From Candidatus Hydrogenedentales bacterium (lineage in GTDB: Bacteria; Hydrogenedentota; Hydrogenedentia; Hydrogenedentales; JAEUWI01), in the NCBI GenBank assembly GCA_942492815.1, contig OW818658.1, positions 5,208,125-5,272,124 on the forward strand: a stretch of DNA of 64,000 nucleotides, read 5' to 3'. Positions within the stretch are counted from its first letter, which is position 1. Each line of letters opens with the position of its first letter. The position numbers and the translations under genes are program-made. Under the pieces are notes generated by a model. It searched no databases and was not told the DNA's origin. It saw nothing but the letters and a program-made list of their open reading frames with translations. This document shows, piece after piece, positions 19,011-62,532 of this stretch.

Positions 19011-21443
<2,433 letters not shown>

Positions 21444-28689: not shown

Positions 28690-30264
28690 TCAATTCGTCA
28701 GCGCGCTGACGCCCGCTTCCAGCAGCGCCACCGCCGTCCGGCGCGACGTCGCGATCTGCGCCTCCAACTGGTCCACTAGCCCCATCAACTCCTCCACCCG
28801 CGCCACGATGCGGCGTTGTTCCGCGAGGGGTGGGAGAGGAAATTGAATTGAACAAATAGTTTTCATGTTCAAAAATGGCTGGACTGCCTCGGATGCAATC
28901 CCACGAAGATACTCGGCTATAGCATTCAAGTAGATGCACAAATACTGGGCCGTAACCACCTCACCTACGCGAAATCTGCACAAACCCGTTGTGGAGAGCA
29001 TCCCCTCCGGCATCGACTCCGGATAGATGGCACAGAGTCCAATGCTTCCGACTTTACCTAAGAGTACATCGTTCGGCAATACGTTGTGCCGCCTCAGCAA
29101 CGCGAACTTTTCCTCTCGAATGTATCGAAGGTCGTTGGGATTAAACCTAAACGGCTTAACATTCACCATTCGAATCACGGGGACACCCGTCTCTATGTAA
29201 TCCGTCTTTATGTTTATAGATTGACCGAAGGGCCCGTCGACAATCGCTGACTCTGAAGCATTCCCTATCTCGCCAATTCTGCACCACGTCCAGGATTCTG
29301 GAAGCGGATGGTTGTGCCCACTCAGGCTAGAATCAGCCAGTGCTCTTGGTTTACGCATCTCCCCTGATTTAATCGCGATTTGTTTAGCGCTTTCCACCCT
29401 CGCGAGGAGCTCCTCCGCCCCTTCATCTGCCGGGTCCTGGGGCACGAGCTTTCCCCGAACGGCGAGGGTGAGGATGGACTTGCGGAGGTCGGCGGGGTCG
29501 ATGGGGCAGGCCGGGTGAAAGAGGAGCTTGAGGTTTTCCGGGGTCGGGTCCTCGTTGAACCGGGACACGCTGGCGCGGGCGAGATCGGCGTGCCGCGCGT
29601 CCCGTTCCCGCTGCTGCGCCTCCAGCCGGTCACACAGGGCCATCAAGGCATCCACCTTCGCCACAATCCGCTTCTGCTCCGCGAGCGGCGGGAGGGGAAT
29701 CTCGAATCGCTCAATCATCCCTTTTGTCAGCGCCTGCCGGGTTGCTCCAACTTGTACATCATCGATCATCACTTGAATCGCCGGACTGGCCAGAAACTTC
29801 GCAAGGAACACCGGGTCCAGATCGGGTGTGGGACGTATTATAGTCACGTGCTGGTTCACCCGCGCGCCCACCATCTCCACTGGCGCCGTCGTGACTCGGC
29901 CAATCGACGCACCTGTGATATTGAGGAGAACGTCATCCGCCTGCACGATCACATTCGAGAGCTTATCTGCTTGTTCGCTCGTCAAGAACACAAGGCCGAG
30001 AGGTTCGAAACCGCGAAAGTGAACGTTCATCGAACGAATGAGCGGAATCCCTTGAGTCACGTAAGAGACCCGGCCTCCCGACGGTGTTGCACCACTGCCG
30101 ATCTTGGAAGCCAACGACTTGAGAGTCACCAAAGGCCAGGGCTCGCCAACCGGCAACAGTTTTCCCGAGAAGGCAAGGTGAAGCACCAGTTCCCGCATCT
30201 TGTCCACAGCCCTGGGCGCGTCGGCGAACAGCTCAAAGTTCTCAAAAAAAGTGTCGAGGTTCAT
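28690..30264 (-). CDS. hsdS: Type I restriction-modification specificity subunit HsdS (two target-recognition domains)
   Basis: Central and C-terminal conserved repeats LPPLAEQKRIVAKVDALM... and LPPLAEQRRIVARVEELM...; ATG at 30264 preferred (ORF track start 30297). Confidence 0.9.
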   Translation of the reverse strand: MNLDTFFENFELFADAPRAVDKMRELVLHLAFSGKLLPVGEPWPLVTLKSLASKIGSGATPSGGRVSYVTQGIPLIRSMNVHFRGFEPLGLVFLTSEQADKLSNVIVQADDVLLNITGASIGRVTTAPVEMVGARVNQHVTIIRPTPDLDPVFLAKFLASPAIQVMIDDVQVGATRQALTKGMIERFEIPLPPLAEQKRIVAKVDALMALCDRLEAQQRERDARHADLARASVSRFNEDPTPENLKLLFHPACPIDPADLRKSILTLAVRGKLVPQDPADEGAEELLARVESAKQIAIKSGEMRKPRALADSSLSGHNHPLPESWTWCRIGEIGNASESAIVDGPFGQSINIKTDYIETGVPVIRMVNVKPFRFNPNDLRYIREEKFALLRRHNVLPNDVLLGKVGSIGLCAIYPESMPEGMLSTTGLCRFRVGEVVTAQYLCIYLNAIAEYLRGIASEAVQPFLNMKTICSIQFPLPPLAEQRRIVARVEELMGLVDQLEAQIATSRRTAVALLEAGVSALTN

Positions 30265-30676
30265 TGTACCCCCAGGGACTGACGCGCGCAGGCGCACTTG
30301 TCGCGAGCGGCACAGACCAGGCGGTCAATCGGCGATGGTGAAAGCGGCAGGCACGCCCATGCGCGTGGCTGTCCCGTCGTGAGGGAGATGCACGCGATAC
30401 TCAAAGACAGGCCCGGTCCGCGACACGCCCCCTGAATACGGGCGTCGCGCGTGCGTCGAGGGCGCTCGGGCCACGACGGGACAGCCACGGACGTTGAAAT
30501 ACCTGTTGCTCGTAAACGACCCCCGTCAATCCATGGTGCCTTTGCTACCGGAATACACCGGTCCGCGTCAGTCCCTGTGAGACTGCCCTTCACACCATCG
30601 CAGGCCCCTCGCAGGCAAGTCGCATCGGCGACTGACGCGACGCCACGGGCACGGGAAAGCCAACCGGAGCGGCCAG

Positions 30677-30913: not shown

Positions 30914-32350
30914 TCATCGCGTCAGCGCCTCCATCAATTGCGCCTTCAATGCTTCCCGGGTCTCGGCGATCTGCGCCAGGAGCTTTTCGTATTCCGGCAG
31001 GAGTTCGTCCACGTTGCCGGGGCCGGTGTCGGTGCTGTGGGGGTTCTTCAGGTCGAGGTTGTAGTTGCCCGCCTGGATGGCCGCCACGGAGACGCGCCAG
31101 GCCTGCTCGTTTTCCACGCGCTTCTTCCACCACTTTTTCTCGGGCGCGAATTCCTCAATGCGGATGGGCTTGGTCTTGTTGTAGCTCTTGGCGCCGGGGG
31201 GATAGGGGTGCTCGTAGTACCAGACCTCCTTCGTGGGCTTGCCCGCGTCGAAAAAGAGCAGATTGGTGCGGATGCCGGTGTAGGGGCTGAAGACGCCGTT
31301 GGGCAGGCGCACGATCGTGTGGAGGTTGAACTCGGTCAGGAGCCGCTCCTTGATGCGGGTCTTCACGCCTTCGCCGAAGAGGGTGCCGTCGGGCAACACG
31401 AGCCCCGCGCGGCCGCCAGGCTTGAGCAGCTTCATCAGCAGCACGAGGAAGAGATCGGCTGTTTCTCGCGTGCGGAATTCCGTCGGGAAGTTGGCCTCGA
31501 TCCCGTCTTCCTCCATGCCGCCGAAGGGCGGGTTGGTGACGATGACGTCCACGCGCTCGGTGGCCTTCCAGTCGCGCAGTGGCCGGGCGAGGGTGTTGTC
31601 GTGGCGCACGTTGGCGGGCACGTCGATGCCGTGGAGCATGAGGTTGGTCATGCAGAGGACATGGGGCAGGTGCTTCTTCTCGATGCCGTGGAAGCAGTCC
31701 TGGATCGCGCGCTCGTCGGCCTCGGTTTTGGCCTGCTTGCGCAGGTGCTCGATGGCGCAGGTGAGGAAGCCGCCGGTGCCGCAGGCGGGATCGAGGAGGG
31801 TCTCTCCGAGGCGCGGGTTGACCTGCTCCACGATGAACTGGGTGACGGCCCGGGGCGTGTAGAACTCGCCCGCGTTGCCCGCGGACTGGAGGTCTTTCAG
31901 AATGCGCTCGTAGATGTCGCCGAACATATGGCGGTCGTCGGAGGCGTTGAAATCGATGCCATTGATCTTGTTGATCACCTGGCGCATGAGGGTGCCGTTT
32001 TTCATGTAGTTGTTGGCGTCTTCAAAGCTCATGCGGATGAGCCCGGCAATCTTGTCCTGGCCGCCGGTGAGGGCCTTGAGCTTGGGCAGGAGCGTGTTGT
32101 TCACAAAATCGAGGAGGGCCTCGCCCGTGATGCCTTCCTCGTCCTTCGCCCAGTGGCTCCAGCGCAGGTGCGGGGGCAGGGGCGACTTGTAGTGGTCGCG
32201 GATGAGTTCGAGTTCCTGCTCGCGGTCATCGAATATTTTCAGGAAGAACATCCAACCGAGCTGCTCCAGGCGCTGGGCGTCGCCATAGGTGCCGGCGTCC
32301 TTGCGCATGATGTCCTGGATGGATTTTACGATATTGGAAACGTTGGACAT
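30914..32350 (-). CDS. hsdM: Type I restriction-modification DNA methyltransferase subunit HsdM
   Basis: N6-adenine methyltransferase motifs (TNPPFG, LDPACGTGGFL); 478 aa. Confidence 0.95.
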   Translation of the reverse strand: MSNVSNIVKSIQDIMRKDAGTYGDAQRLEQLGWMFFLKIFDDREQELELIRDHYKSPLPPHLRWSHWAKDEEGITGEALLDFVNNTLLPKLKALTGGQDKIAGLIRMSFEDANNYMKNGTLMRQVINKINGIDFNASDDRHMFGDIYERILKDLQSAGNAGEFYTPRAVTQFIVEQVNPRLGETLLDPACGTGGFLTCAIEHLRKQAKTEADERAIQDCFHGIEKKHLPHVLCMTNLMLHGIDVPANVRHDNTLARPLRDWKATERVDVIVTNPPFGGMEEDGIEANFPTEFRTRETADLFLVLLMKLLKPGGRAGLVLPDGTLFGEGVKTRIKERLLTEFNLHTIVRLPNGVFSPYTGIRTNLLFFDAGKPTKEVWYYEHPYPPGAKSYNKTKPIRIEEFAPEKKWWKKRVENEQAWRVSVAAIQAGNYNLDLKNPHSTDTGPGNVDELLPEYEKLLAQIAETREALKAQLMEALTR

Positions 32351-32467: not shown

Positions 32468-32493
32468 GAATGAGGGCGGATAATCCGCACATT

Positions 32494-34860
32494 TTACGCC
32501 ACCCTCCGGTACAGCTCGGCTTCGAGGGCCTGGATCGCCTCCAGGTACTGTTCCTTGCCGCCGAAGAGTTTCACGATCTCCGTGACGGTGCCGAATTGGG
32601 TCAGCGGAGCCACTTTCAATATTTCCAGGGACTCCACGCTCTGGATGCCGCCGTCGGCGAACTTGTCCAGCAGCGCGTCGAGCACGGCGCGCACCTCCGC
32701 GCCGTATTTCGCGAAGACGTGGCGCTTGCGCACGTTCTCCGCGCGCTCGCGCCGGGTGAGGGGCGGCTCGTCGAAGGCCACGTGGCAAATGAGGTCGAAG
32801 GCGTCGTAGTCGCGGCCCACCTGCTCGGCGAGTTCGTCCAGGAAGACGCCCTTGCCCGCGAGCTCTTCGAGGATGGCCTGCTTCCGCTCGGCATCGCTCC
32901 AAACGGTGAGAAATTCCGTCAGCGTGGCGAAGGACTTTTGCACGGTGCGGCGGCTGTAGTCGCGGAGGGATTCGGTGATGAGCTTGCCGTCGGCGTCGAG
33001 GTATTGCACGCGCTCGGTGACGATCTTTACTTCCACGTTGTCCACGTAGTACTTCTTCGGCCGTCCGCTGTCGCCCTCACCGTCGAGGGGCCAGGGCTCA
33101 CCGTCAATGTACACCTCGCCCTCTTCCTGAGCGTTCGTCGAACTTTCGTCCGGCGGCACCACGGAATCGTCGGGCCCGGGTACATAGATCTGCACCGGAT
33201 CGCCGTCGAAATCCGGATCGGCGAAGAGGGCCGTGGCGCGCTTGAAATCCATGATAGTGAAATAGAGCTTGCCGTAGTCCTCGCGGATGCGGGTGCCGCG
33301 ACCGATGATCTGCTTGAACTCGGTCATGGAGGCGATGCGCTTGTCGAGGACAATGAGGTGGCAGGTCTGGGCGTCAACGCCGGTGGACATGAGCTGGGAG
33401 GTGGTGGCGATGACCGGATAGTCCCGGCTGGGATCGATGAAATTGTCGAGCTGGGCCTTGCCCTCGGGGCTGTCGCCGGTGATGCGCATGACGTATTTGT
33501 CGTTGGCGGCGGCGAGGTCGGGGTTGGCGTTGACCAGGGCCTGGCGCATCCGCTCGGCGTGATCGATGTCGTCGCAGAAGACTATCGTCTTGGCGAAGCG
33601 GTTGGTGGCGTAGAGGAACTCGGTGATTTTCGCGGCCACGAGGGCGGTGCGCTTTTCGAGGACGAGGTTGCGATCAAAGTCGAGGATATTGTACTCGCGA
33701 TCTTCGATTTCGTGGCCGTATTTGTCGGTCTGGCCGCGCTCGGGCCGCCAGCCGTCGAGGTCTTTGTCGATGCCGACGCGGACCACCTTGTAGGGCGCGA
33801 GGAAGCCGTCGGCGATGCCTTGCTTGAGGGAGTAGGTGTAAATGGGTTCGCCGAAGTACTCGATGTTCGACACGTCGCGCGTTTCTTTGGGCGTTGCGGT
33901 GAGGCCGATCTGGGTGGCGGAGCTGAAGTACTCCAGGATCTGCCGCCAGTTGGCGTCGTCGGCCGCGCTGCCGCGATGGCACTCGTCGATCACGATGAGA
34001 TCGAAGAAGTCGGGCGAAAACTGTTTGTAGATGTTCTGATCTTCCTCGGTGCCGCTGACGGCCTGGTAGAGGGCGAGGTAGATCTCGAAGGCCTTGTCCG
34101 CCGTGCGGTTCGTGATCTTGGTCATGGCCTTGCCGAAGGGCTTGAAGTCGTTGCTCTTGGTCTGGTCGGCGAGGATGTTGCGATCGACGAGAAAGAGGAT
34201 GCGTCTGCGCGCCCCGGCCTTCCACAGCCGCCAGATGATCTGGAAGGCGGTGTAGGTCTTGCCAGTGCCGGTGGCCATAACGAGGAGGATGCGCTTCTCG
34301 CCGCGCGCGATGGCGTCCACGGTGCGGTTGATGGCGACGAGCTGGTAGTAGCGCGGGGCGCGGTCGGAGCCGTCGTCGTAGTAATCCTGGGTGGTCACGG
34401 CTTCCTGCGCGTCGGTGTAGCCTTTGGCCTGGCGATAGCGGGCCCAGAGTTCTTCGGGCGTGGGGAATTGATCGAGGGGGATCTCGCGCTCGACTGTGCC
34501 TCCGGTGCCAGTGCGGTCGTGCTCCAGAAAGGTGTCGCCGTTGGAGCTGTAAGCAAAGGGCACGTCGAGGATCTCGGCATACTCGAGCGCCTGCTGCATG
34601 CCCGCGCCCACAGCGTGGTTATTGTCCTTGGCCTCGACGACGGCAATGGGCATGTTGGGCTTGTAGAAAAGGAGGTAATCGGCTTTTTTCGCCTCGCCCC
34701 GCGACACGGACTTGCCCCGGACGATCACGCGCCCCTTGGTGAAGTGATACTCTTCGAGCATCTGGGTCATCACGTCCCACTTCGATCCGCCGGGTCCGAG
34801 GATCGCCGGCGTGATGAACTTGGTGCGGATGTCGGTCTCTGTCAGTGCCTTTTTGTCCAC
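32494..34860 (-). CDS. hsdR: Type I restriction enzyme endonuclease/helicase subunit HsdR
   Basis: 788 aa; N-terminal nuclease region, SF2 helicase motifs (ATGTGKT Walker A, DECHR); canonical HsdR N-terminus. Confidence 0.95.
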
Positions 34861-34953
34861 GTGTGCCCCTGTGTGCCTGTTTTGTATGAATCCCGCCCGG
34901 GCTCGGTGGGGCTATTGTACATGGCACCGGGCCGAAGTGGGAAGCGGGGCGGG

Positions 34954-35967
34954 CTATTTCGCCTTTTCCTCGATCCGCTTTGCTTCCCGCTCCAGTTCAG
35001 CCATTTCGTCGCTGGCGGCCTCTTCATCCAGTCTTCGCCGGTTGAACTTTTCGTACTCCCCTTCCGCGCGGGATTTTGCGAGGTCTGCGCTGATGGTGCC
35101 CGCGTTCTCCAGAACTTCCCGCCCGTTGAACTGGAGGAAGGCATTGAGCTTCCCCTCCCAATCGGCCATGTGCATGGGCTGCTTTCGCTCCGCCTGGTCT
35201 TCGGCGTAGTCGAGGTACATCGTTACGATTCGGTTGAGTCCACGCACTTCCTCCTCGGTGAGGTAGTTTTTCGCGATGGCCACGTCGCCCTTCCGAACTT
35301 TTGCGCCTTTCCAGGTGGTCAGGCCCATGTTGGGCTGGGTGGCGTCCACGCGTTCCACGATCAGCTCGGCAGCCGTGTGGCCGTGGGTCGCCCAGTGAAG
35401 TTTGTTCTGCACTGCCTTGAAGAAATGTCGGGCCTGTTCGGAGTTGGGTTCATAGTCCACAGCGAGGGCGTAGATATCCTGAATCTTCCGGTAGAAGCGT
35501 TTCTCCGAAGCGCGGATATCACGGATCCGCTCCAGGAGTTCGTCATAGTAGTCCGCGCCGAGATTGCGGCCCTCCTTGAGCCGCTCGTCGTCCATGGCGA
35601 AGCCCTTGACGAGGTATTCCCGGAGCCGCTCCGTGGCCCAGCGACGAAACTGGGTGCCCCGGTGGGAGCGAACGCGATATCCGACGGCGATGATCACGTC
35701 GAGGTTGTAGTGTTTGATTGCCCGCTGGACTTCCCGCGCGCCCTCGGATTGAACTGTCAAGTATTCCTTGACAGTTGCCCCTTCGTCGAGTTCGCCTTCC
35801 TCGTAAATATTTCGAATATGGAGACTTATGTTCTGCTTGCTGCTATGAAACAAGTCTACCAATTGCGCCTGGCTGAGCCAGACGGTCTCGTCTTCCAAGC
35901 GCACGTCGATGCGCGTCTTCCCGCCCTCGGGCTGGTATATGAGGATTTCCGATTGTGGTTCCGGCAT
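34954..35967 (-). CDS. rhuM: RhuM family protein (uncharacterised, frequently linked to Type I R-M loci)
   Basis: N-terminal region ...IYQPEGGKTRIDVRLEDETVWLSQAQLVDLFHSSKQNISLHIRNIYEEGEL typical of RhuM; directly upstream of hsdR on the same strand. Confidence 0.8.
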   Translation of the reverse strand: MPEPQSEILIYQPEGGKTRIDVRLEDETVWLSQAQLVDLFHSSKQNISLHIRNIYEEGELDEGATVKEYLTVQSEGAREVQRAIKHYNLDVIIAVGYRVRSHRGTQFRRWATERLREYLVKGFAMDDERLKEGRNLGADYYDELLERIRDIRASEKRFYRKIQDIYALAVDYEPNSEQARHFFKAVQNKLHWATHGHTAAELIVERVDATQPNMGLTTWKGAKVRKGDVAIAKNYLTEEEVRGLNRIVTMYLDYAEDQAERKQPMHMADWEGKLNAFLQFNGREVLENAGTISADLAKSRAEGEYEKFNRRRLDEEAASDEMAELEREAKRIEEKAK

Positions 35968-36237
35968 GCGGCCCTCCCGTTGTCCCGTGCCCCCGGTGCT
36001 TGACGTCGCTGGTGGCGGCGCTCACTGGAATCCATACTGCCGCACGGGATATTGAAAGCTTAGCGCAGGCTGCGGGGATGGCGCAACGCAAACGGGAGCG
36101 CGGGTTTTCCTACCCGCGTATCGGGCAACTTAGTTGCGCGATCAAGTGAGGCGGGGCTACGGGCGGAACCGAATGCGCCGTTGGCGCAACCACGTGTAGG
36201 AAGACCCGTGCTCCCGGTTTCCGTCCTGAACTCCCCC

Positions 36238-43353: not shown

Positions 43354-46300
43354 TTATCGCGCCAGACGGAATCCGTTGATACCGTCGGAGTGGTTCGGGT
43401 CGTAGCGGAAGCGTCGGGACGAGCGCTGGTTCTCTTTTTTCACCAGTCGGGCCCAGGCGCCGCCGCGGGCAACCTTGTTGGTGCCGACTTCCGGCCCGCG
43501 CGGATTGTCCGTCACGTTTTGACTGTAATACGTGTCCAGATACCAGTCATCGCACCATTCAACCACATTGCCCGCCATGTCATAAGCCCCGATGGGGCTG
43601 GGGCTGTCCACGGTCTGGATATTGCCGTTGGGGCTGATATTGATTCCATTGAACCAGCCCACCGGCGAGGTATAGGACTCTTTCGCATCCTGGAGGATGC
43701 CCAGCGGGTTGATGAAGCTCGTGCTGCCGTAATCCGGATTGGGGCGGAAGGCGTCCACGTGGAAGTTGACCCGATCCCGCGTGGTCAGCTCGTCGCTGGT
43801 GATCGGATAGATCCAGTGCTTCTCACCGTCCCAGGCGGCCGCCCGCTCCCATTCGGCCTCGGTGGGCAGGCGGTAGCCATTCTTCGTGAAGTCGCCGGTC
43901 CACGTGTCCGTATCGTAGACCGGTTCGAGGCCGGAACGCTCGGAAAGCCAGTTGGCAAAGAGCACGGCGCCATACCACGTGGGCTCGGTCACCGGATGCG
44001 TCGCCTTGTCGTAGAAGGTGCCGGCCGGGATCCCTTCAAGGCTTTTCGTCACGAAGGCCTTGGAAGTCTGATCGTAGTCAATCCCGTCCTCCGTGAGGGC
44101 GAAAGCGAAGACCACCCGAGGCAATACGCTGTCGTAGAACCATGCATGCTCGGGGAAGCCACGCCACGTGGCGCCGTTGGGCCGCTTGAGCAAATCGCGG
44201 GAAGGATGGTGCATGTAATTCATGAACTCGGCATATTGGGCGTTGTTCACCTCAAATTTGCCGATCTCGTAGGCGTCCAGCGTAACGTCGCGGCGGGGAA
44301 GCTCATCCGACTGATCGAAAAGCGCGTCATCGCCGTCTTCCCGGGGCCCCATGGTAAAGGTGCCCGCGGGCACGGGAATCATGACCACATCTTCAAAGAA
44401 GGACGCGCTGAAGGTGCTCGTGGCGACCACCTCGGTGTCCGCGCGAGGATTGTCGGTGCTGCCATCGCTCCACTGGGAGAAGAGGTAGCCCTCATCGGGG
44501 ACCGCGGTCACCGCTGCCGTACTCGCGCCCACCGCAACATCCTGAACGGCGACACCGGCAATGTTCCCATTTTCCCCGGCCTCGTAGGTCACCGTAAGTG
44601 TCGCAGAGAAATTGGCCGTGACGGAAATATCGGCGCTGACATCCAGATCCGTGCGGGGATTGTCGAGAACGCCATCGCTCCAGCCGTCGAAGCCAAATCC
44701 GTTGGCGGGTACCGCCGTCACCGCGCGGCCATCCGCACCATCGCGGATGGTCTGGCTCGTGGGCCCGGTCAGGCTCCCGTTGCTGCCCGCGATATAAGTC
44801 ACGGTGAACAGCTCAACAAACTGGGCGGTCACCGTCACATCACTGATTACATTAACGTCGGTACGGGGATTCTGCTTCGTGTTGTCACTCCATTTGTCGA
44901 ACACGAAACTGGCATTGGCGACGGCCGTCACGGCCGTGCCCGAACCGCCTGTATTCACAATCTGGGTCGTCGTGCCGGTCAGCGTTCCGCCTTCGCTGGC
45001 CAGATACGTCAGGGTATAGGCCGGCACGAACTCCGCCGTTACGCTCAGGTCGCTTGTGGGGCCTGTGTCCACCCGGGGATTTTCCGTGCGACCATCGCTC
45101 CACTGATCGAAGCCATAGCCCTCATTGGGCACAGCGGTAACCGCCGTACCTGTGCCGCCGCTGCCGATCACCTGCTCCGTATCCCCCGTCAGGGTTCCAT
45201 TCGAGCCCGCCGTGTAAACCAAATCGATCGCCGTGGCGAAGTTCGCGGTCACGGTAACATCACCGTCCACGTCAACGTCCGTTCTGGGATTGTCCGAGCG
45301 CCCATCACTCCAGCCCGCAAAGCCGAAGGTCGCATTGGGCACCGCTGTCACCGCCGTGCCGTCCTCGCCGTCATTCACGATCTGCGAGGTCGCGCCCGTG
45401 AGGGAGCCGTTGGCCCCGGCAACATACGTCAGCGTGTACTGGGCCAGGAAATTGGCCGTAACCGTCACATCCCCATCCACATCGAGGTCCGTGCGGGGGT
45501 TGTCCTCGCTGCCATCGCTCCAGCCAAGAAAGATGAAACCCTCGCCGGGCACCGCGTTGACGGGCGTGCCATCGTTCCCGTCGATGACGGACTGCTGGGT
45601 CACGCCTTCCAGGGTGCCACCCGCGCTGGCGGTGTAGGTGAGTTGGAAGACTTCCCGGAAGTTGGCCGTAACCGCCAGGTCCGCCGTCACGTTAAGATCC
45701 GTGCGCGGATTGTCCGTGCGACCGTCGCTCCAGTCTTCAAAGACGAAGCTGTCGTTGCGCACGGCGGTGACGGGCGAGCCGCTGCCGCCCTCCGGCACGA
45801 GCTGGTTGGCGTTGCCCGCGATCGTGCCGCCCGCGCCCGCGGTGTAAGTGAGCGCGAAGAGTTCGGCAAAGTTGGCGGTCACGGAAATGTCCGCGCCCAC
45901 CGTCCGGTCACGGCGGGGATTGAGGGTGCTGCCATCGCTCCAGTTGACGAAGGCGTAACCGTCCAGAGGCACCGCCGTCACGGCGGAACCGTCCGCGCCG
46001 GGGGCCACACTCTGGGGCGTAGTGCCTTCGATGGTGCCGCCGGGGCCCGCCGCATAGGTCAGGGAAAAGGGATCGCCCCCATCGCAGGGGCCTTCAAAAC
46101 CACCCAGCGCAATAATCTGATCGAGGCGGTTACGGCTGACCTGCAGGGTCTCCGCCGTCGGCGTGCCTTCGCCGAAGAGCAGGCACACGGTAACAAGGTC
46201 GCCCCCATCATCCTCGGGTGTGCCGGGAAGATCGAGCACCACAATCGTGTGCGGTGCAATGGAACTGTCCAAGCCGGCCGTTCCCACCACGGCGACATCG

Positions 46301-47061
46301 GTGTTGATTGCCAGAATCGCGGGGGTGCCGCTCGGGGTGCCATAGTCGCCCGGCACGAAAATATCGGCGTCGCTGTAGTCCACCGTGTACCGGGCCGTGC
46401 CGGCTGCGAGGACGAAGGTCTCGGCGGCACTGTCCGTGCTCTCGATGGTGCCTTCGATCCGGGTATGGGAGACAGATTCCCGGAGATCGGCGGAAAGCGT
46501 CGGCGCCAGCGTATAGTTGCCGCCCTCGCCTTCGAGCACGTTGAGGCCACCCAGTTCGAGATAAAGCATGCCCGCGCTGTCGGCGACAATCTCAAAATCA
46601 AAGTCCAGGGTGTAGGTTCCGCCGTCAGACAGTGCCAGCGTGATGGTCTCCAGAGGATTGCTGACCAGCACCATGCTGGCCTGGGAGATTACGAGTTCCA
46701 CGCCGGTATACGCGCCAGCGGGGACTGTCGTATCCGAAAGGAGCGCCGCCACGGTGGTCAGATCTAAGAGATCCACCGTTTTCGCGCTGGGTAGGACACT
46801 GGTGGACACCGTATCAGCGCCATCCTGCGAAAGAACGCGAATCGCCTGGATTCGAGCCTCCAGACTCAGAATGGCCGCGTCGTCCACCGGGACGAGTCCC
46901 TTGGGGATCAATTTCCCGGCGTCAAGCGCCCCCGTGGCGAGGAGAACCTTGAGGCTCTCTTCCTCGGGTGTCGGGGGCGGACAACTGGTAAGGGCAATCG
47001 AGCTCAGCACGGCCAAAGTAAGAAAAAATGAACAGCGTCGAAAATTAATATAAACGTGCAT
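43354..47061 (-). CDS. Giant lipoprotein: N-terminal DUF4382-like region, 8 divergent InlB B-repeats, C-terminal formylglycine-generating-enzyme (FGE)-sulfatase domain
   Basis: 1235 aa; lipobox ALTSC; 8 repeats of ~75 aa with F-x-x-WSDG-x-x-x-NPRTD...VTANF; C-terminal FGE-type motifs (MAGNVVEWCDDWY, RGGAW). Confidence 0.85.
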   Translation of the reverse strand: MHVYINFRRCSFFLTLAVLSSIALTSCPPPTPEEESLKVLLATGALDAGKLIPKGLVPVDDAAILSLEARIQAIRVLSQDGADTVSTSVLPSAKTVDLLDLTTVAALLSDTTVPAGAYTGVELVISQASMVLVSNPLETITLALSDGGTYTLDFDFEIVADSAGMLYLELGGLNVLEGEGGNYTLAPTLSADLRESVSHTRIEGTIESTDSAAETFVLAAGTARYTVDYSDADIFVPGDYGTPSGTPAILAINTDVAVVGTAGLDSSIAPHTIVVLDLPGTPEDDGGDLVTVCLLFGEGTPTAETLQVSRNRLDQIIALGGFEGPCDGGDPFSLTYAAGPGGTIEGTTPQSVAPGADGSAVTAVPLDGYAFVNWSDGSTLNPRRDRTVGADISVTANFAELFALTYTAGAGGTIAGNANQLVPEGGSGSPVTAVRNDSFVFEDWSDGRTDNPRTDLNVTADLAVTANFREVFQLTYTASAGGTLEGVTQQSVIDGNDGTPVNAVPGEGFIFLGWSDGSEDNPRTDLDVDGDVTVTANFLAQYTLTYVAGANGSLTGATSQIVNDGEDGTAVTAVPNATFGFAGWSDGRSDNPRTDVDVDGDVTVTANFATAIDLVYTAGSNGTLTGDTEQVIGSGGTGTAVTAVPNEGYGFDQWSDGRTENPRVDTGPTSDLSVTAEFVPAYTLTYLASEGGTLTGTTTQIVNTGGSGTAVTAVANASFVFDKWSDNTKQNPRTDVNVISDVTVTAQFVELFTVTYIAGSNGSLTGPTSQTIRDGADGRAVTAVPANGFGFDGWSDGVLDNPRTDLDVSADISVTANFSATLTVTYEAGENGNIAGVAVQDVAVGASTAAVTAVPDEGYLFSQWSDGSTDNPRADTEVVATSTFSASFFEDVVMIPVPAGTFTMGPREDGDDALFDQSDELPRRDVTLDAYEIGKFEVNNAQYAEFMNYMHHPSRDLLKRPNGATWRGFPEHAWFYDSVLPRVVFAFALTEDGIDYDQTSKAFVTKSLEGIPAGTFYDKATHPVTEPTWYGAVLFANWLSERSGLEPVYDTDTWTGDFTKNGYRLPTEAEWERAAAWDGEKHWIYPITSDELTTRDRVNFHVDAFRPNPDYGSTSFINPLGILQDAKESYTSPVGWFNGINISPNGNIQTVDSPSPIGAYDMAGNVVEWCDDWYLDTYYSQNVTDNPRGPEVGTNKVARGGAWARLVKKENQRSSRRFRYDPNHSDGINGFRLAR

Positions 47062-50291: not shown

Positions 50292-50331
50292 ATCGCCGCG
50301 CTCCACGATGCTGGAGCGCGGCGATTTTTTG
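50292..50331 (+). terminator. Rho-independent terminator after the speH / DHS-like operon
   Basis: ATCGCCGCGCTCCA-cgatgc-TGGAGCGCGGCGAT followed by TTTTTTGT. Confidence 0.8.
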
Positions 50332-50336
50332 TCTGA

Positions 50337-50855
50337 GGGGACGTACCGCCGCAAATAAACCCCGTAAAGGGCACACCGCCCTACGCCCTATGAGTCCATT
50401 CAACCGAGGGACGTTCACGCCAACGCGGCGGCATGTCCCTGGGGATGCTGGAATCACGACGCGGAATAAATCCAGGGCGCTCCATTACATCCGCCGGGAC
50501 GGGCACGCGCGCTGCCAGGAGCATCGCAAATAACAGTCATAGGAATGCGTGGAGTGACCCGCGCCCACACAAGTCGCGGGCGCGAGTCCGTCCCAGGGGA
50601 CGTACCGCCGACAATATTCCCCGTGAAGGGCACACCACCCTGCGCGCTCTGGATCCATTCAACCGAGGAACGTTCACACCAAGGCGGCATGTCCCTGGGG
50701 ATACTGGAATCGTGACGCGGAATAATCCAAGACCCTCCATTACGTCCACCGGGACGGGCACGCGCGTTGCCGGGAGCGTCGCACATAACCGTCATAGGAA
50801 TGTGCGGAGTGACCCGCGCCCGCGCCCGCAGCCGTCGCGGGCGCGAGTCCGTCCC
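50337..50855. repeat. Family-2 structured repeat, two tandem units (~258 + 261 bp)
   Basis: Units about 85% identical; each has a 5' GGGGACGTACCGCC box, a central GGCGGCATGTCCCTGGGGAT(G/A)CTGGAATC(A/G)TGACGCGG box and a 3' GGGACGGGCACGCGCG...CGCGGGCGCGAGTCCGTCCC box. Confidence 0.8.
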
Positions 50856-50856
50856 T

Positions 50857-51699
50857 TTACGCGCCCCACTTCTCGCGGATCATCTTCAGGCCGTTCGTGG
50901 CGAGGTACTCTTCGCTCGGAGCCATGACGCGCCAGATGCAGGTGGCACCGGCAAGATCGGGGATCCAGGAGCCAAAGGCTTCGATTACCATCCAGCCGTC
51001 GTAGCCGATTTCCTTGAGTGCCGCGAAGCAGGTGTCGTAGTCGATGTGGTCGTCGCCGGGTGTCGCACGGTCGTTCGCGGAGATATGCACGTGGTTGATG
51101 CAGTTGCCACCGGCGCGGATCGCCTCGGCGAAATTCTTCTCTTCGATGTTGGCGTGGAAGGTGTCGAACATCTCCCCCACCGCTTCGATGCCAACGGCGC
51201 GCACAAGATTCGCGGAATCCGCCTGGGTGTTGAGGAAATACGTCTCGAAGCGGTTCAAGGGCTCGATGGCGAGTTTGATGCCTTTCTCCGTGGCGTGGGC
51301 ACCCACTTCACGGAAGCCTTGGATCGCGCGATCCATTTCATCAGGCACGGGGCCGCGTCCGATGAGCCGACCCACCGGGCTGTACAGGGGGCCGCAGAGG
51401 GCCTCGGCGCCCAGCACCACACAAGCGTCTATGCAGGCTTTGAGATGGACGACAGCCGCCTTGCGCTCGCCTTCGTCTTCACCGATCAGGTTCGTGCCGG
51501 CGGGCAACACCGTCACCGCCGTCCGGCCCAGGCCCAGCGCGTCGCACTTGGCGGCCAGCTTAGCCCAGGGGGATCCATCGGCCGAAAACATGGGAAACTC
51601 CACGCCGTCGAAGCCCCAGCCTTTGATCTGTTCCAGCAGGGGCAGGTGGCTCTCGTCCGCGCCACCGGTCCACAGCAACAAGTTCATCCCGACTTTCAT
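50857..51699 (-). CDS. Sugar phosphate isomerase/epimerase (xylose-isomerase-like TIM barrel)
   Basis: 280 aa; TIM-barrel family pattern (...AIEPLNRFETYFLNT..., ...HVHISANDR...). Confidence 0.85.
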   Translation of the reverse strand: MKVGMNLLLWTGGADESHLPLLEQIKGWGFDGVEFPMFSADGSPWAKLAAKCDALGLGRTAVTVLPAGTNLIGEDEGERKAAVVHLKACIDACVVLGAEALCGPLYSPVGRLIGRGPVPDEMDRAIQGFREVGAHATEKGIKLAIEPLNRFETYFLNTQADSANLVRAVGIEAVGEMFDTFHANIEEKNFAEAIRAGGNCINHVHISANDRATPGDDHIDYDTCFAALKEIGYDGWMVIEAFGSWIPDLAGATCIWRVMAPSEEYLATNGLKMIREKWGA

Positions 51700-55527: not shown

Positions 55528-55625
55528 GCGGGAGCACGGACATTCCTGTCCGTGTCCTCGTGCAACGGAGTTGCACGATACGCGGGTAAGAAAACCCGCG
55601 CTCCCGAGTACTGGAGTAAAACCAA

Positions 55626-57065: not shown

Positions 57066-57073
57066 GGGTACCA

Positions 57074-57720
57074 GGGGACGTACCGCCGCAAAGGCACTTG
57101 GGCAGACGCGGTAAACACGAATCGTCATTGCCACTCGATAGGGACAAAGCCCGCTCTGGTGCGGCGGCATGTCCCGGTGGATGTTGCAACGTGACGTGAA
57201 CACTTCGCGAAGCTTTCGGTAATGGACCCGGTGGATGAAGCCCGACTGGATCCACAAAAACGGTGATGTGGAGCGTTCGCGTGTACTCCACACTTCCACT
57301 GGGACAGGCACGCGCGTTGTCGTAAACTTTGCTCGTATTCGTCATCCTGAATAATCAATATGAACCACGCCCGCAGTAGTCGTGGGCGCGAGTCCGTCCC
57401 CGGGGACGTACCGCCGCAAAGGCACTTGGGCAGACGCGGTAAACACGAATCGCCATGCACACTCGATTTTGACAAAGCACGCTCTGGTGCGGCGGCATGT
57501 CCCTGTGGATGTAGAATCATGACGTGAACGCAACATGTAGTCAACTTGCGGAGAACGCTCGACCGGATTCGCAAAATCGGCGATCTGGAGCGTTCACGCG
57601 CCTTTCGCACATCCACTGGGACGGGCACGCGCGTTGTAAGGTACTTTGCCCACATTCGTCATCCTGAATACTTCAATGTGCACCCCGCTCGCAGTAGTCG
57701 TGGGCGCGAGTCCGTCCCCC
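57074..57720. repeat. Family-2 structured repeat, two tandem units (~328 + 319 bp)
   Basis: Both units start GGGGACGTACCGCCGCAAAGGCACTTGGGCAGACGCGGTAAACACGAATCG and end CGCAGTAGTCGTGGGCGCGAGTCCGTCCCC; shared boxes with 50337-50855. Confidence 0.8.
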
Positions 57721-57721
57721 G

Positions 57722-60700
57722 TCAGCCGCTCAGCGCATGAACAAACAACGTCTGCTTCGCCACTTTCGCTTTTGCCAACTCTACCAGATGCTGGTGGTGT
57801 GTAAAGTAAATCACCTGGGTGCGCTCGGACAGCGTGGCGAGCACGTCGAGTGCGGCGGTCGCGCGGGCGTCGTCGAAGTTCACGAGGATGTCGTCGAGAA
57901 TGAAGGGAATGGGCGCGTGGCGTTCGAGGTGGCGCTCCAGGCTGGCAATGCGCAGGGCCAGATAGAGCTGGTCCGCCGTGCCCTCGCTCATGCCCGCCAC
58001 TTCGACAAGCGATGCAGTTTCCGCGCGAACACCGAGGAGCACGTGGCGATCCCGATCATCCACATCGGCGCGAAGCTCCGCGAAAGATCCCAGCGTCAAC
58101 GTCTGAAAGATTTCACCCGCCCGGGAGAGCAACGGCTCCTGATTCGCCGCTCGGTAACGCTCGATAGCGCGATTCAGCGTGAAGTGGGCGACCCTAAGAC
58201 GGGCATACTCTTCGGCATCTTCCGCAATAGTCGCAATGAGGGACTGGGTCTCCACCGCCGCATCGGCGGCCTGGCTTCCGCCGTTCATCTGGGCCAGTCT
58301 GTTCTCGAGTGTGCCGATAGAGATAAGCAATGCGTCGTGTTCTATTTTCAACTCATCCAGTCGCTCTTCAAGTGCCAGCAGGGCTGGCATGAGAGCGTCT
58401 GAATCTTCCGCCGCCACCAACTCGTCTATGGACGCTATTGCAATCCCAGGGTACAGGACAAGGAGGCGCTTTTCGATATCGCGCAGTGCGTCCTCGATTC
58501 GCTGCCGCTCGTTGGAGCCCTTTTCAGCGTCGGGCAGCGCGGCGGCATCTTCCACGCGCGCTTCGACGCACAACGCGGCTAACTCACCTTCCGCGCGTGC
58601 CAGAGCCGCCTCGGCGGCGCGATGGCGCTCCTCTTCATCGTGCAATTGCTTCGTCAAGCGTTTCTGCTCGCCATTGGCCTCGCGATTCTGCTTCAATGCC
58701 TGATAGAGGGCCCGCACGATGGCGTATTCGTCCCCTTCGACCGCCAGTCCAACAGTCGATGCCAGGGCCCGCGCTTCGCTACGAAAATTTGCGTCGTCGC
58801 GCAGGATGAAATCCACGCGCTGCTGAAGCTCCACTGAACTTGCGTGCTTCGTCAGAACCTCGTCGATCGCCTCCACGATGGCGAGGGCTTCCGCGCCGAC
58901 GGCATCGGGACGGGCACCGATAGCCTGCATCATCGCGGACCAGGCATCGCGCCAGGCCTCCTCCTCTTCCCGCGCGCGGGCCAGGGCCCCTTCGGCGGCG
59001 GGGCAGTCGACGCGCTCGAGCTTGTCGAGCGTCTTTTCCATATGGGCACGTTGCTGGGTGATCTCGCGCTGTCGCGCCAGCGCGACCTCGGCGTGATCGA
59101 TCAGGGCCGCCAGCGACGATTCAGCAGGCAGGCAATCAAGGCCGCAGCCTTCGAGGACCGCCTCCAACTCGGCGCGCTGTGTAACGTTGGAGGCGCGCAA
59201 GGCCTTCAATGACTTCGCGGTTTCATGGAGCGCGGCGATCTCGGATTGAAGTGCATCGAAGGACTTGCGCCAGGCCGCCATCTCCGCCGGTGTACGGGGC
59301 TCGATATCGGCAGGCTGCCACAGAGCCTTCCACGCTTTTTCCAGCTTTTGATGGCTCGCGAGTGTGGCAGCATGGACGGCGTGCTGCTTCGCGCACTTCT
59401 CCCCAAGGGCCGCAACGGCGCTTTCCAGTTGCGCGCGCTGCGCCACGCGCTCCGCTTCCGTACGAAGGCGATCCGACAGCTCGTCAGCATCCGTCACGAG
59501 CGCCGCCACGGCATCGGCCAGATTCTGGACCTCGGGGTGGCGTGCGCGAACGTCTTCCACGATAGCGCTTGCTTCGGGAGTGGCGACCTGGTCGGGCGGC
59601 GTAGCCCCTTCCCAGGCGGCGCGGGCGAAGGCCCAACTCTGCTGACGCAGACCGCGGGCTTCCTCCAGTGCTTCGAGGGAAGGCGCGTGGTGCTCGCGCT
59701 GATAGGCCGCCAGATCGGATTCGGCCCGCGCCCGCTCCGCCTCGATCGCCGCCAACTGCTTCTCCGCCTCGGCGGCCGCGCGAATGGATTCGCCCATATC
59801 CAGGCGAAATTGCTCGATACTCTCCGCCGATGGCACGGAAAGGAGCTCCAAGGCCTCCATGGTGCCCGACCAATGTCCCAGACGCGCGATGCCCGACGCA
59901 ATCAATTGGTGAAGGCTCTCCGCGCGGGCTTCATGATCGCGCAGCGCACTTTCCCTGTCTCCCGACTGACGACTACGCTTCAAGGCGGCATCAAGGAGCG
60001 CGGTATCCGTGGCGACGCCCACAACGGCAAGTTCCGCCACGGCCAGTTCCCGTTGGCGTTGCAACTGATCGAGAGCGACGTTTGCGTGGTGCAGCCCATC
60101 GCGACAGGACTGGCCGCGCCGGTCCAGCTCCGCCAGGCGCTGCTTCTGTCCCGGCGGCAGGCGCAATTCTTCGGCCTGCTCAATCGACCAGTGAGGGCGC
60201 AGGTGATGCAGCGTGCGCTCCGCTTCATCCCGCAGGCGCGCCAGTTCGGGCGCGAGCTTGCGCTCGAGGTCGTTGCGCGCTTTTTCATTGACGCCGAGGT
60301 CCTGATGCAGCTTTTCGATCTCGTCTTCCCGCGCGAGCAGCAGGGCATTGACGTGAAGGGGCTCCAACTCCCGCTTCAACCGCGCAATGGCCGCGCCAGT
60401 CTGCACAAGGGTCTCGCCGGCATTCCGGGCGGCGGTCTGCGCGTGGATCCGCCGCTCGGAAAAATCCGGGGGCAACAAAACCGTTGCGGCCAGGGGCGCG
60501 AGGGCCTCCAGCAATGTAGCCCGTTGTGATACAAGCGGCAGGGCCTCGTGGATGCGCTTCAAGCGAGCCTGCTCCGCACGGGCCTCGCGGAGTCGATCGT
60601 CCAGTTCGGCGCGGCGCGCCTCGGCGGCCTTCCTTTCGCCATCCAGGGCTTCCCACTCGCGCGACGAGAGCTGCGCGAATTTCACCGTCTTGCGGGCAAT

Positions 60701-61270
60701 GGCGAGTCGAGCCAGCGCGCTATTGATGCGCGGCTTGGCAGCGCCGGGCTTGAAAAGCTCCCCCGCGTCGCTGTCGAGCTTCGCTAAGAGCGCGCGGAGG
60801 TGCCCCATGCCCGACGCGGCGGAGAAGAGGGCCTGCCCCACGTCCCCTTCGCCCTGCACAAGGGCCTGGCCGCCCTGGACCAACTGGTCGTGGGTCAAGC
60901 CGAAAAGATTGCGAAAGGCGTCCACATCGACTCCGCCGCTATAAGGCGCGAGGGCATCGTCGGGAAGCGCGGTCTTTTCGTCCTCCGCCAGGAGCGTGGC
61001 CTTGTTGCCCTTGCGGCGATAGAGGGTGATGCTTTGCTTTTCATTGGTGAGGGTCGCGCCGATGCGCAGCTCCGCCATGCGGTGGAGGAAGTCGTCCGCC
61101 GTGCGGGTCTCGATGCCGTAGAGCAGTTGGGTGATCGCGCGGAGGGTGGTGCTCTTGCCGGCCTCGTTGGGACCGTGGATCAGGTGGAGTCCTTCTTTGC
61201 CGCCGGAGAGGTCGAGGCTGCGATCGGTGAAGGCGCCGAAGGCCTTGAGGTGGAGCCGCTGGAGTTTCAC
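57722..61270 (-). CDS. SbcC/YhaN-like ATPase with long coiled-coil
   Basis: 1182 aa; N-terminal Walker A GPNEAGKST; long Ala/Glu/Arg/Leu-rich coiled-coil; C-terminal Walker B region ...IPFILDDILVNFDD. Confidence 0.85.
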   Translation of the reverse strand: MKLQRLHLKAFGAFTDRSLDLSGGKEGLHLIHGPNEAGKSTTLRAITQLLYGIETRTADDFLHRMAELRIGATLTNEKQSITLYRRKGNKATLLAEDEKTALPDDALAPYSGGVDVDAFRNLFGLTHDQLVQGGQALVQGEGDVGQALFSAASGMGHLRALLAKLDSDAGELFKPGAAKPRINSALARLAIARKTVKFAQLSSREWEALDGERKAAEARRAELDDRLREARAEQARLKRIHEALPLVSQRATLLEALAPLAATVLLPPDFSERRIHAQTAARNAGETLVQTGAAIARLKRELEPLHVNALLLAREDEIEKLHQDLGVNEKARNDLERKLAPELARLRDEAERTLHHLRPHWSIEQAEELRLPPGQKQRLAELDRRGQSCRDGLHHANVALDQLQRQRELAVAELAVVGVATDTALLDAALKRSRQSGDRESALRDHEARAESLHQLIASGIARLGHWSGTMEALELLSVPSAESIEQFRLDMGESIRAAAEAEKQLAAIEAERARAESDLAAYQREHHAPSLEALEEARGLRQQSWAFARAAWEGATPPDQVATPEASAIVEDVRARHPEVQNLADAVAALVTDADELSDRLRTEAERVAQRAQLESAVAALGEKCAKQHAVHAATLASHQKLEKAWKALWQPADIEPRTPAEMAAWRKSFDALQSEIAALHETAKSLKALRASNVTQRAELEAVLEGCGLDCLPAESSLAALIDHAEVALARQREITQQRAHMEKTLDKLERVDCPAAEGALARAREEEEAWRDAWSAMMQAIGARPDAVGAEALAIVEAIDEVLTKHASSVELQQRVDFILRDDANFRSEARALASTVGLAVEGDEYAIVRALYQALKQNREANGEQKRLTKQLHDEEERHRAAEAALARAEGELAALCVEARVEDAAALPDAEKGSNERQRIEDALRDIEKRLLVLYPGIAIASIDELVAAEDSDALMPALLALEERLDELKIEHDALLISIGTLENRLAQMNGGSQAADAAVETQSLIATIAEDAEEYARLRVAHFTLNRAIERYRAANQEPLLSRAGEIFQTLTLGSFAELRADVDDRDRHVLLGVRAETASLVEVAGMSEGTADQLYLALRIASLERHLERHAPIPFILDDILVNFDDARATAALDVLATLSERTQVIYFTHHQHLVELAKAKVAKQTLFVHALSG

Positions 61271-62532
61271 TTGCCCGCCTCCAGGCGCTGCCCGACGGCG
61301 CGCAGGAGCGCTTCGGATTCATCGAGCCATTCCACGAGTCGCTGGGGTCGATCCAGACCAAGGCTGCTCTCGCCTTCCGCGAGTTCCCCTGGCAATTTCC
61401 CATGCAGGGGTTCAAGCAGGGCAGCCAGTTCAGCGAGGGAGACCTCGTCCGTCTTCATGAAGGCGATCACCTCGGCCAGCTCGGCGAAGGGGCCGTCGTC
61501 GAAGGGCTCGCTGGTGGACTTCGGCGCCGTGGTGCTCACCTTCACCTTCTCAATCCAGACTTGATCGCCGCCGTGGATATTGGCGATGTTGCGAATCTCG
61601 CCCACCAGGCGTTTGGGCTGGGCCAGAAGTTCACCGTGGGCCTTGCTGGCACCCGTGAAGGTCACGCGAACCGCAAGCATGCGATCGCCGCAGGAATCGA
61701 GCGCCTGCAACAGGGCATCCTTGAAATCGTCAACGCACTCGTCCAGCGTGGCACAGCGCGATGCGTCCACGGCGATCTCCGCCCAGCGCACCACATCGAG
61801 TTCACGAAAATCGACCTCGTGACGGCCGTGATCATCGACAGTAATCACGAGGCAGCCCTTCGGCCCGGTCTCGCGAATGTGGCGGCCCTGAATATTGCCG
61901 GGAAACCAAATCGCCGGATCGAAAACGCGGACGGCCTCCTGCTTGTGAATGTGACCCAGGGCCCAGTAATCATAACCAAGTTTCTTCAGGCCCTCAATCG
62001 TGCAGGGGGCGTAGGTGTCGTGGCCTTCGTAGCCCGTGAGGCTGGTGTGGAGCAAACCGATGTTGTACACGCCCGGCACGGCCTTGGGATAGTTGGCGCT
62101 GAGGTCCGCGGTCACCGCACGGGTGGCGAAGCCCTGGCCGTGAAGGGCCACGCCGATGTCTTCCAGTTGTATCGTCGCCGCCTTCTTCGTGGTGAATCGG
62201 TGGACGTTGTCCGGCAGTTGGAGGCTCTTGGTCATGACGCTCTGGGCGTCGTGGTTGCCTGCAATGAGGTACACGGGAATCTTCGCATCCCGGAGGCGCG
62301 CCATCTGGCGGGCAAAGAAAAGCCCGGTATTGTGATCGGGCCAGTCACCGTCGTAGACATCCCCCGCGATGAGGACAAAGTCTACTTCTTCCTCCAACGC
62401 GACATGGACGAGATTTTCCAGGGCGCGGCGGGTCGCGCCGCGGAGGGCCTCTTCCGGCGCGCCTTCATAGTGCGCCAGTCCAAGGAGGGGGCTGTCGAGG
62501 TGGAGATCGGCTGCATGGATGAATTTAGACAT
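61267..62532 (-). CDS. SbcD/YhaO-like calcineurin-type metallophosphoesterase nuclease
   Basis: ATG at 62532 gives MSKFIHAADLHLD (motif I); GDVYD and GNHD motifs; 4-nt overlap with the ATPase gene. Confidence 0.85.
   Translation of the reverse strand: MSKFIHAADLHLDSPLLGLAHYEGAPEEALRGATRRALENLVHVALEEEVDFVLIAGDVYDGDWPDHNTGLFFARQMARLRDAKIPVYLIAGNHDAQSVMTKSLQLPDNVHRFTTKKAATIQLEDIGVALHGQGFATRAVTADLSANYPKAVPGVYNIGLLHTSLTGYEGHDTYAPCTIEGLKKLGYDYWALGHIHKQEAVRVFDPAIWFPGNIQGRHIRETGPKGCLVITVDDHGRHEVDFRELDVVRWAEIAVDASRCATLDECVDDFKDALLQALDSCGDRMLAVRVTFTGASKAHGELLAQPKRLVGEIRNIANIHGGDQVWIEKVKVSTTAPKSTSEPFDDGPFAELAEVIAFMKTDEVSLAELAALLEPLHGKLPGELAEGESSLGLDRPQRLVEWLDESEALLRAVGQRLEAGK

Follow-up and report, generated by a model that had tools for sequence, protein, structure and literature searches.

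What kind of machine is encoded by two overlapping genes on the chromosome of a Candidatus Hydrogenedentales bacterium, and does it serve the repair of the cell's own DNA or its defence against foreign DNA? The genes occupy positions 57,722 to 62,532 of a 64,000-nucleotide stretch of contig OW818658.1, which we call the window. A first-pass annotation of this stretch, made from the sequence alone, had described them as an SbcCD-like nuclease and ATPase pair of YhaO/YhaN type, either housekeeping or associated with defence. Our analysis indicates that they very probably form an intact chromosomal two-gene operon for a Mre11/Rad50-like DNA-end-processing nuclease of the YhaO/YhaN (SbcF/SbcE) family. 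We give a probability of about 0.6 to the reading that this nuclease is an ordinary housekeeping DNA repair module, acting in the repair of chromosomal double-strand breaks or aberrant structures.

Both genes were found on the minus strand at the coordinates of the first-pass annotation. The upstream one (61267..62532, open reading frame (ORF) with a Metallophos domain) encodes the presumed nuclease subunit, a YhaO/SbcF-type Mre11-family phosphoesterase of 421 amino acids (aa), and the downstream one (57722..61270, ORF with AAA_27 and SMC_N domains) encodes a 1182-aa SMC/Rad50-like ABC ATPase of the YhaN/SbcE family, in a long form. According to the ORF coordinates, the phosphoesterase stop codon and the ATPase start codon overlap by four nucleotides, GTGA (61267..61270, minus strand), indicating translational coupling of the two genes. 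The ATPase starts with a GTG codon, and its N-terminus, MKLQRLHLKAFG, agrees with the starts of its homologs in the alignment. The phosphoesterase begins at MSKFIHAADLHLD (minus-strand position 62532); its reading frame is open as far as 62787, beyond the chosen start, and we consider 62532 correct because 21 homologs begin at the equivalent Met.

The phosphoesterase is recognized by the Pfam Metallophos model with an E value of 4.7e-16 and contains Mre11 motifs I-VI in a nuclease-plus-capping-domain fold. The metal-ligand residues D9/H11, D58, N93-H94, H162, and H194/H196 are invariant in an alignment of 22 sequences, as are, across the family, the DLHLD and GNHD motifs that had been noticed in the first pass. 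The invariance of every Mre11 catalytic residue argues for an active nuclease. In a Foldseek search with the AlphaFold 2 (AF2) model of the protein (pLDDT 86, pTM 0.76), the top 50 PDB matches were all Mre11 or SbcD, the best being 3av0_A (E 3.8e-16). These matches extend over the nuclease domain and the capping domain; with full-length Mre11-Rad50 complexes, the alignment also takes in the C-terminal helices, which comprise residues 348-418 of the model. At the sequence level, solved SbcD and Mre11 proteins match the N-terminal part only (the first ~100-240 residues, E ~1e-10).

In the ATPase, the AAA_27 model (PF13514) matches residues 1-206 over its entire length (profile positions 1-206 of 206; E 2.9e-72; 243 bits for a gathering cut-off of 22), and SMC_N matches the C-terminus. 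We aligned 19 sequences of the family, and the residue conservation given below refers to this alignment. Walker A (GPNEAGKST, with N35-E36-G38-K39), the signature motif (GMSxGTxDQLYLALR), and the H-loop (FTHH) are invariant, and Walker B (PFIxD1126-D1127, PFILDD in the window protein) ends in Asp-Asp, D1127 being invariant in the family. The Walker A/B ATPase of the first-pass annotation therefore has all four of these motifs in place. Rad50 has Asp-Glu at the end of Walker B, and the Asp-Asp of the window protein suggests slow, switch-like ATP hydrolysis.

Between the two halves of the head, no CxxC zinc hook is conserved; the sole near-invariant Cys of the protein is C901, and the CGLDC of the window protein (~residues 694-698) was rejected as a zinc hook because it is not conserved in the alignment. 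The best-conserved element of the centre is instead ADExSDRLRxEAxRVA (~residues 595-612), and the soluble centre carries a second conserved motif, W..W..P.EM..W. The AF2 model (pLDDT 81, pTM 0.36) shows a split head (residues 1-200 and 1060-1182) and, between its halves, ~850 residues of helical arm in ~17 helices. Its local structural matches are Rad50 and SMC heads. The Pfam domains and the models of both proteins, which resemble Mre11/SbcD and SMC/Rad50, bear out the SbcCD/Mre11-Rad50-like architecture that had been proposed.

Is the pair then a canonical SbcCD? It shares with SbcCD and Mre11-Rad50 the combination of a nuclease with a long-armed ABC ATPase in two subunits, including Mre11 motifs I-VI, the capping domain, the C-terminal helices, and a Rad50/SMC-like head. 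It differs from them in lacking the zinc hook, in having Asp-Asp and not Asp-Glu in Walker B, in the breaking of the modelled arm into ~17 helices, and in scoring below the curated SbcD and Rad50 cut-offs. The phosphoesterase obtained 66.1 bits with TIGR00619 (sbcD, cut-off 77.65), 38.5 bits with the SbcD model NF008206 (cut-off 450), and 42-51 bits with the Mre11 equivalog models (cut-offs 500-600), and the ATPase obtained 17.3 bits with the Rad50 model NF003034 (cut-off 700).

The similarity to the YhaO/YhaN family is more specific. The reference proteins used for this comparison come from a Staphylococcus yhaO-yhaN-yhaM locus in a record mislabelled as phage. The phosphoesterase is 34% identical to Staphylococcus aureus YhaO over 280 aa (E 2e-51), and the C-terminal head of the ATPase is 27% identical to S. 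aureus YhaN over 188 aa (BLASTP, E 2e-16). The signature S-x-x-T-x-x-L-Y-x-A-L-R and the D-D Walker B are common to the ATPase and the C-terminal half of Firmicutes YhaN, and the AAA_27 model also recognizes S. aureus YhaN (89 bits) and plasmid entries named 'YhaN family protein' (248 bits). Relatives of the ATPase are labelled 'YhaN' or 'YhaN family protein' by JGI and NCBI, beside a 'DNA repair exonuclease'. Because the SbcD, Mre11, and Rad50 models are missed, while the YhaO similarity, the full-length AAA_27 head, the signature, and the D-D Walker B are present and the hook is absent, the 'YhaO/YhaN type' label of the first-pass annotation is correct, and the pair is on sequence criteria a member of the YhaO/YhaN family (SbcF/SbcE; Pfam AAA_27 / COG4717), not a canonical SbcCD.

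The characterized member is that of Bacillus subtilis, in which SbcE and SbcF act in double-strand-break repair and transformation (PMC2811018). SbcE has no CxxC, SbcE and SbcF interact in a yeast two-hybrid assay, and SbcEF coexists with SbcCD, from which it is genetically distinct (PMC2811018). The window pair resembles SbcE/SbcF (YhaN/YhaO) in its N-terminal AAA_27 head, in the same signature, in the 'DD' Walker B, and in the absence of a CxxC hook, and its gene order is also that of YhaO/YhaN, with the nuclease first, the ATPase second, and the two overlapping.

These observations bear on the idea that the pair is the only SbcCD of the organism, a divergent ortholog that has replaced the canonical complex and cleaves hairpins and palindromes in the same way. 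Such a replacement would fit the two-subunit architecture with its Mre11 and SMC/Rad50 folds, the names 'exonuclease SbcCD subunit D' or 'DNA repair exonuclease' under which relatives are annotated, the absence of a second SbcCD-type pair within the 64-kb window, and the synteny in close relatives described below. We regard it as unlikely, given the wide margins by which the SbcD and Rad50 equivalog models are missed, the missing zinc hook, the DD Walker B, a nuclease much closer to YhaO than to SbcD, and the coexistence of SbcEF with a distinct SbcCD in Bacillus.

Within the YhaN family, the ATPase belongs to a distinct long-form subfamily, since the unique central domain of the Firmicutes type, with its hydrophobic first half and conserved proline, was not found. 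The window protein is ~200 aa longer than YhaN/SbcE (1182 versus 963-981 aa), and its central region could not be aligned with that of Staphylococcus YhaN. Staphylococcus YhaN has a hydrophobic central hairpin at residues 464-512, which reaches a Kyte-Doolittle value of 3.0, whereas no hydrophobic central segment was detected in the window protein, the other members of the alignment, or one plasmid homolog (all below 1.6), and the soluble centre with its conserved motifs is found in its place. The long form also differs from Staphylococcus YhaN in keeping the FTHH H-loop, and from the Firmicutes operon in that no yhaM lies downstream of the window pair. B. subtilis SbcE is reported to have a hydrophobic and insoluble central domain, of which the hydrophobic hairpin of Staphylococcus may be the counterpart. 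In the S. aureus YhaN-type protein itself (locus L089, 3628-6573), residues 464-512 look like a two-helix transmembrane hairpin; if the same segment is present in B. subtilis SbcE, it could explain the reported insolubility of that protein and why its foci are polar or membrane-proximal.

Reasoning from SbcCD/Mre11-Rad50 and from B. subtilis SbcEF, we consider it probable that the window pair shares an ATP-gated mechanism for processing ends and hairpins. The ATPase would dimerize through its heads upon ATP binding, and the tips of its arms would probably dimerize through the conserved central region, a putative apex, instead of a zinc hook. A dimer of the nuclease would dock on the ATPase heads via its C-terminal helices, giving an M2R2 complex. 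Driven by ATP, the complex would then clamp DNA ends, hairpins, or blocked termini and so position the Mn2+ nuclease for cutting or resection, and the processed ends would feed the recombinational repair of chromosome breaks.

The coupling of the two genes is widespread. In an exhaustive search, 4,485 clusters (50% identity) match the ATPase at E<=1e-30, which is far beyond chance, and the best 150 of them align end to end, with lengths of 1150-1220 aa. A scan of species-representative genomes with the ATPase gave at least 80 loci, with 31-37% identity among the matches listed, from Desulfobacterota, Planctomycetota, Nitrospirota, Acidobacteriota, Gammaproteobacteria, and others. A phosphoesterase of ~420 aa is encoded directly upstream of the ATPase in 76 of the 80 listed loci, and the 4-nt overlap recurs in most of these. 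The phosphoesterase is the better conserved of the two proteins, with 43-54% identity compared to 31-37% for the ATPase. Among the four exceptions, L008 is truncated where its contig ends, and L016, L048, and L070 look like orphan ATPases; the one in L048 (8057-9799), a YhaN-like ATPase without phosphoesterase, is preceded by a 580-aa fusion of a reverse transcriptase and a Dam-type N6-adenine methyltransferase. An all-versus-all clustering of the ORFs of the 80 listed loci revealed no third conserved gene, as it returned only shadow ORFs within the pair. An association of the family with phages was also considered and ruled out: tblastn against 50,697 phage records matched nothing but C-terminal fragments, in Staphylococcus and Listeria contigs that had been mislabelled, and a single full-length match was found among 2.9 million viral contigs.

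The structure of the ATPase also raises the question of whether the pair is an SMC-like factor for DNA organization or replicon maintenance, in which the phosphoesterase has a minor or regulatory role, or whether it acts on RNA or nucleotides. The best fold matches of the whole model are indeed Smc5/6, condensin, MukB, and JetC, together with Rad50. Their TM-scores are low (~0.2), however, so we read them as reflecting the generic coiled-coil-plus-head architecture only. On some plasmids the pair lies beside repABC and an ScpB-like gene, but no kleisin or KITE partner is conserved across the 80 listed loci, and the Firmicutes operon includes the RNase YhaM, but no yhaM-like gene adjoins the window pair. 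With the full set of Mre11 catalytic residues invariant in addition, we consider roles of this kind very improbable.

The chromosomal surroundings of the window copy are ordinary. The pair shares the 64-kb window with gyrA and gyrB, glycoside hydrolases, and sensor kinases; the window contains no tRNA, no integrase or transposase was found near the pair, and the GC content is unremarkable. The window is thus core chromosome and a non-island context. The gene order, comprising a membrane gene, the phosphoesterase, the ATPase, a convergent DUF1501 gene, and PSCyt, is kept in relatives that are 84% and 71% identical; relatives at 52% and 45% identity retain the pair alone, surrounded by metabolic genes. 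In a neighbour-joining tree of the nuclease, calculated without support values, the window and these relatives form one monophyletic clade inside the chromosomal group. Synteny across relatives had been proposed as a check in the first pass; the conservation observed in close relatives favours a housekeeping role, and vertical inheritance of the pair in the lineage of the window is most likely.

At the family level, the 149 nearest neighbours of ~40 chromosomal homologs belong to diverse ordinary Pfam families. No integrase, transposase, restriction, or helicase family occurs among the 25 most frequent neighbour families, in a tally that covers these 25 commonest Pfam families, the 25th having only two members, with neighbour genes called by a greedy longest-ORF rule. 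Applied to the same 149 neighbours, PADLOC recognized generic Ser/Thr kinases only.

One challenge to a housekeeping role is that the pair might be an unrecognized defence or anti-mobile-element system, represented on the chromosome by the window copy. Such a machine would detect free ends or unusual structures in invading linear phage or plasmid DNA and degrade it, in a manner comparable to Wadjet, Lamassu, or RecBCD-type immunity. Like the SMC-like defence systems (Lamassu LmuB, Wadjet JetC, Gabija GajA, PARIS AriA, Septu PtuA, MADS), the pair combines an ABC/SMC-type ATPase with a nuclease. Unlike in these systems, the partner is a Mre11-type phosphoesterase and not a Toprim, Cap4, or HNH effector, and kleisin/KITE or LmuA/C partners are missing from the window pair. 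With PADLOC-DB v2, the ATPase matched mad3 (40.6 bits, C-terminal head only) and LmuB (37.6 bits, residues 1-104), and the phosphoesterase matched a generic 'Effector' model with 18.9 bits. There was no full-length match of both proteins to any described system of that database; the matches are partial, lie at the P-loop level, and do not exceed 41 bits.

Evidence for defence comes mostly from plasmids. The family is present on 244 plasmid or chromid records, 96 of which are conjugative or mobilizable. We inspected 13 plasmid contexts and classified seven as defence-type, one as ambiguous, and five as metabolic or replication backbone, the last having only toxin-antitoxin neighbours. In the seven defence-type contexts, known defence genes lie within ~9 kb of the pair. 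Three of them abut Gabija: full-length GajA and GajB (E down to 1e-298) adjoin the pair on the same strand in Sphingobium (pSLPG, L088 6745-15432), Methylomonas (pFW12EY, L091 6737-15115), and Phaeobacter (pP80_b, L104 815-9534). The gaps between the pair and Gabija are ~70-190 bp, and the Gabija subfamily is different in each of the three genera, which are unrelated, so the adjacency may be either a co-location in defence islands or a recurrent four-gene cassette. The defence-type contexts also include Shedu with BREX PglZ/BrxL, DUF4297-HerA with PDC-S06, PDC-S73, MmeI restriction-modification (RM), AbiEii, ThiF/multiubiquitin modules, and DUF3320 helicases. On a Methylotuvimicrobium plasmid, the pair lies immediately downstream of PDC-S06 and the DUF4297-HerA system (L087 1528-11450), and on a Sphingorhabdus plasmid it lies beside the PDC-S73 candidate (L092 11786-14059).

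Further points in favour of defence are that the module is self-contained in a neighbourhood that varies at depth, and that a type I RM locus is present in the window, though 25 kb from the pair. Set against this, the plasmid copies, including those in defence islands, form separate clades of the nuclease tree that are more basal than that of the window; they share the head motifs, including the D-D Walker B, and the central motifs weakly. No defence island or mobile element was found at the window locus or in four related contexts, where the neighbours are metabolic, envelope, or gyrase genes. Around the ~40 chromosomal loci, no defence or mobility family appears among the commonest neighbours and PADLOC reports only the generic kinases, while in the pair itself no model extends beyond the P-loop region. 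The 13 plasmid contexts also include the five of metabolic or replication-backbone type, and plasmids carry genuine repair genes as well, such as umuD. The literature that we searched contains no report of such a system or of any link between the YhaO/YhaN family and defence.

We therefore consider a defence function of the window pair doubtful, and it is slightly less probable again that the long-form YhaO/YhaN as a whole is an unrecognized Mre11-Rad50-type immune or anti-mobile-element system whose chromosomal copies keep that function. The suggestion of a defence-associated paralog made in the first pass holds in part, being a reasonable lead for the separate plasmid-borne clades in defence islands, with nothing to support it at the window locus.

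Several observations weigh against a housekeeping repair role, which we nevertheless favour. The 'DD' Walker B could mean that the ATPase hydrolyzes ATP poorly. The assignment of a role to the long form proceeds by analogy, and its centre differs from those of Staphylococcus YhaN and B. subtilis SbcE; because of this difference (no hairpin, ~200 extra residues), the transfer of the role relies mainly on the head domains and the nuclease. Beyond close relatives the neighbourhoods vary, which is typical also of accessory genes. Finally, the genuine defence islands that harbour plasmid-borne clades imply that a conflict-related role exists somewhere in the family.

Two features beside the pair had been taken as hints of an accessory context, namely repeat elements said to bound it and a membrane protein encoded upstream. 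The repeats belong to a modular intergenic family and are present on the 3' side only: two tandem units of ~325 nt fill the spacer between the ATPase stop codon and the convergent DUF1501 gene (57066-57721), and a search of the 121-bp gap on the 5' side of the phosphoesterase detected no repeat. Related units of ~260 nt fill another spacer (50331-50870), and a further occurrence lies at 24543-24599. The cores of the family are GGGGACGTACCGCCG, GCGGCATGTCCC, GGGACGGGCACGCGCG, and GTCGYGGGCGCGAGTCCGTCCC, the spacers filled are convergent or divergent, and the 22-nt core occurs four times for zero expected. The repeats have no Rfam match at gathering thresholds, and one unit folds only marginally better than its shuffles (z -1.75). 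None of the 104 fetched loci, among them those of the relatives at 84% and 71% identity, contains the core, and the orthologous spacers of the 71% relative measure merely ~100-150 bp. The repeats are thus lineage-specific intergenic insertions at convergent-gene spacers, outside the module, of which they were rejected as a part on account of their absence from the 104 loci, the filling of another spacer, and the short spacers of the relative; nor do they point to an accessory context. In the 84% relative (L081 13590-14210), the spacer between the ATPase and DUF1501 genes holds a different insert, a 91-aa ORF between inverted repeats of ~37 nt, and small elements seem to insert into this spacer repeatedly.

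For the membrane protein encoded upstream, Pfam, NCBIfam, and PADLOC gave no match. Its gene is syntenic in close relatives only (66% identity in L083) and is absent from relatives at or below 52% identity and from the 80 listed distant loci. As it is conserved in close relatives only, the membrane protein was excluded as a component of the module, and it likewise gives no indication of an accessory setting.

Other features of the window lie apart from the pair. The Acido-Lenti-1 RNA motif (RF01687) occurs three times above the gathering score, at 24685-24745 (minus strand), 28119-28166 (plus), and 28550-28597 (plus), two of these matches being inside direct repeats of ~431 nt (27888-28732). 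The direct repeats are immediately beside hsdS (28690-30297) and hsdM (30914-32350), and partial hsdS-like repeats occur at 27850-29696; the hsdS region may be a phase-variable type I specificity-gene shufflon. Two related elements of ~330 nt (18613-18940 and 24625-24950) lie 6 kb apart, on either side of gyrB (19011-21428) and a gene for a HAMP histidine kinase (21564-23723). They are 78-86% identical, both contain an inverted repeat of 65 nt, and the downstream one includes one of the Acido-Lenti-1 matches.

An ORF of 1177 aa (32470-36003, plus strand), which lies next to the methylase gene of the type I RM locus in divergent orientation, has no Pfam match even at an E value of 0.01. A pair of 49-nt inverted repeats (36093-36141 and 55558-55606), 90% complementary and 19 kb apart, may be another dispersed small repeat; one arm lies a short distance upstream of the DUF1501 gene, and the other closely follows the 1177-aa ORF. 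A 1235-aa protein (43354-47061, minus strand) contains an FGE-sulfatase domain at its C-terminus in addition to eight InlB B-repeat (Flg_new_2) domains, and explains the DNA repeats with a 210-nt period at 44423-45984.

The window copy itself is of little import, being an intact DNA-repair-type operon of a known, poorly characterized family. The YhaN family was described in Gram-positive bacteria, and the window pair is part of a very large long-form branch (~4,500 clusters at 50% identity) found in Planctomycetota, Desulfobacterota, Nitrospirota, Acidobacteriota, Proteobacteria, and Hydrogenedentota, a branch without the hydrophobic centre of Staphylococcus YhaN, for which the literature searched holds no experimental study. 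YhaO/YhaN represents a second, hook-less way of building a Mre11-Rad50 machine, which makes its dimerization and its ATPase cycle, with the DD Walker B, mechanistically interesting. The repeated occurrence of the plasmid clades beside Gabija, BREX/Shedu, and HerA provides a testable lead that some members of the family act in defence.

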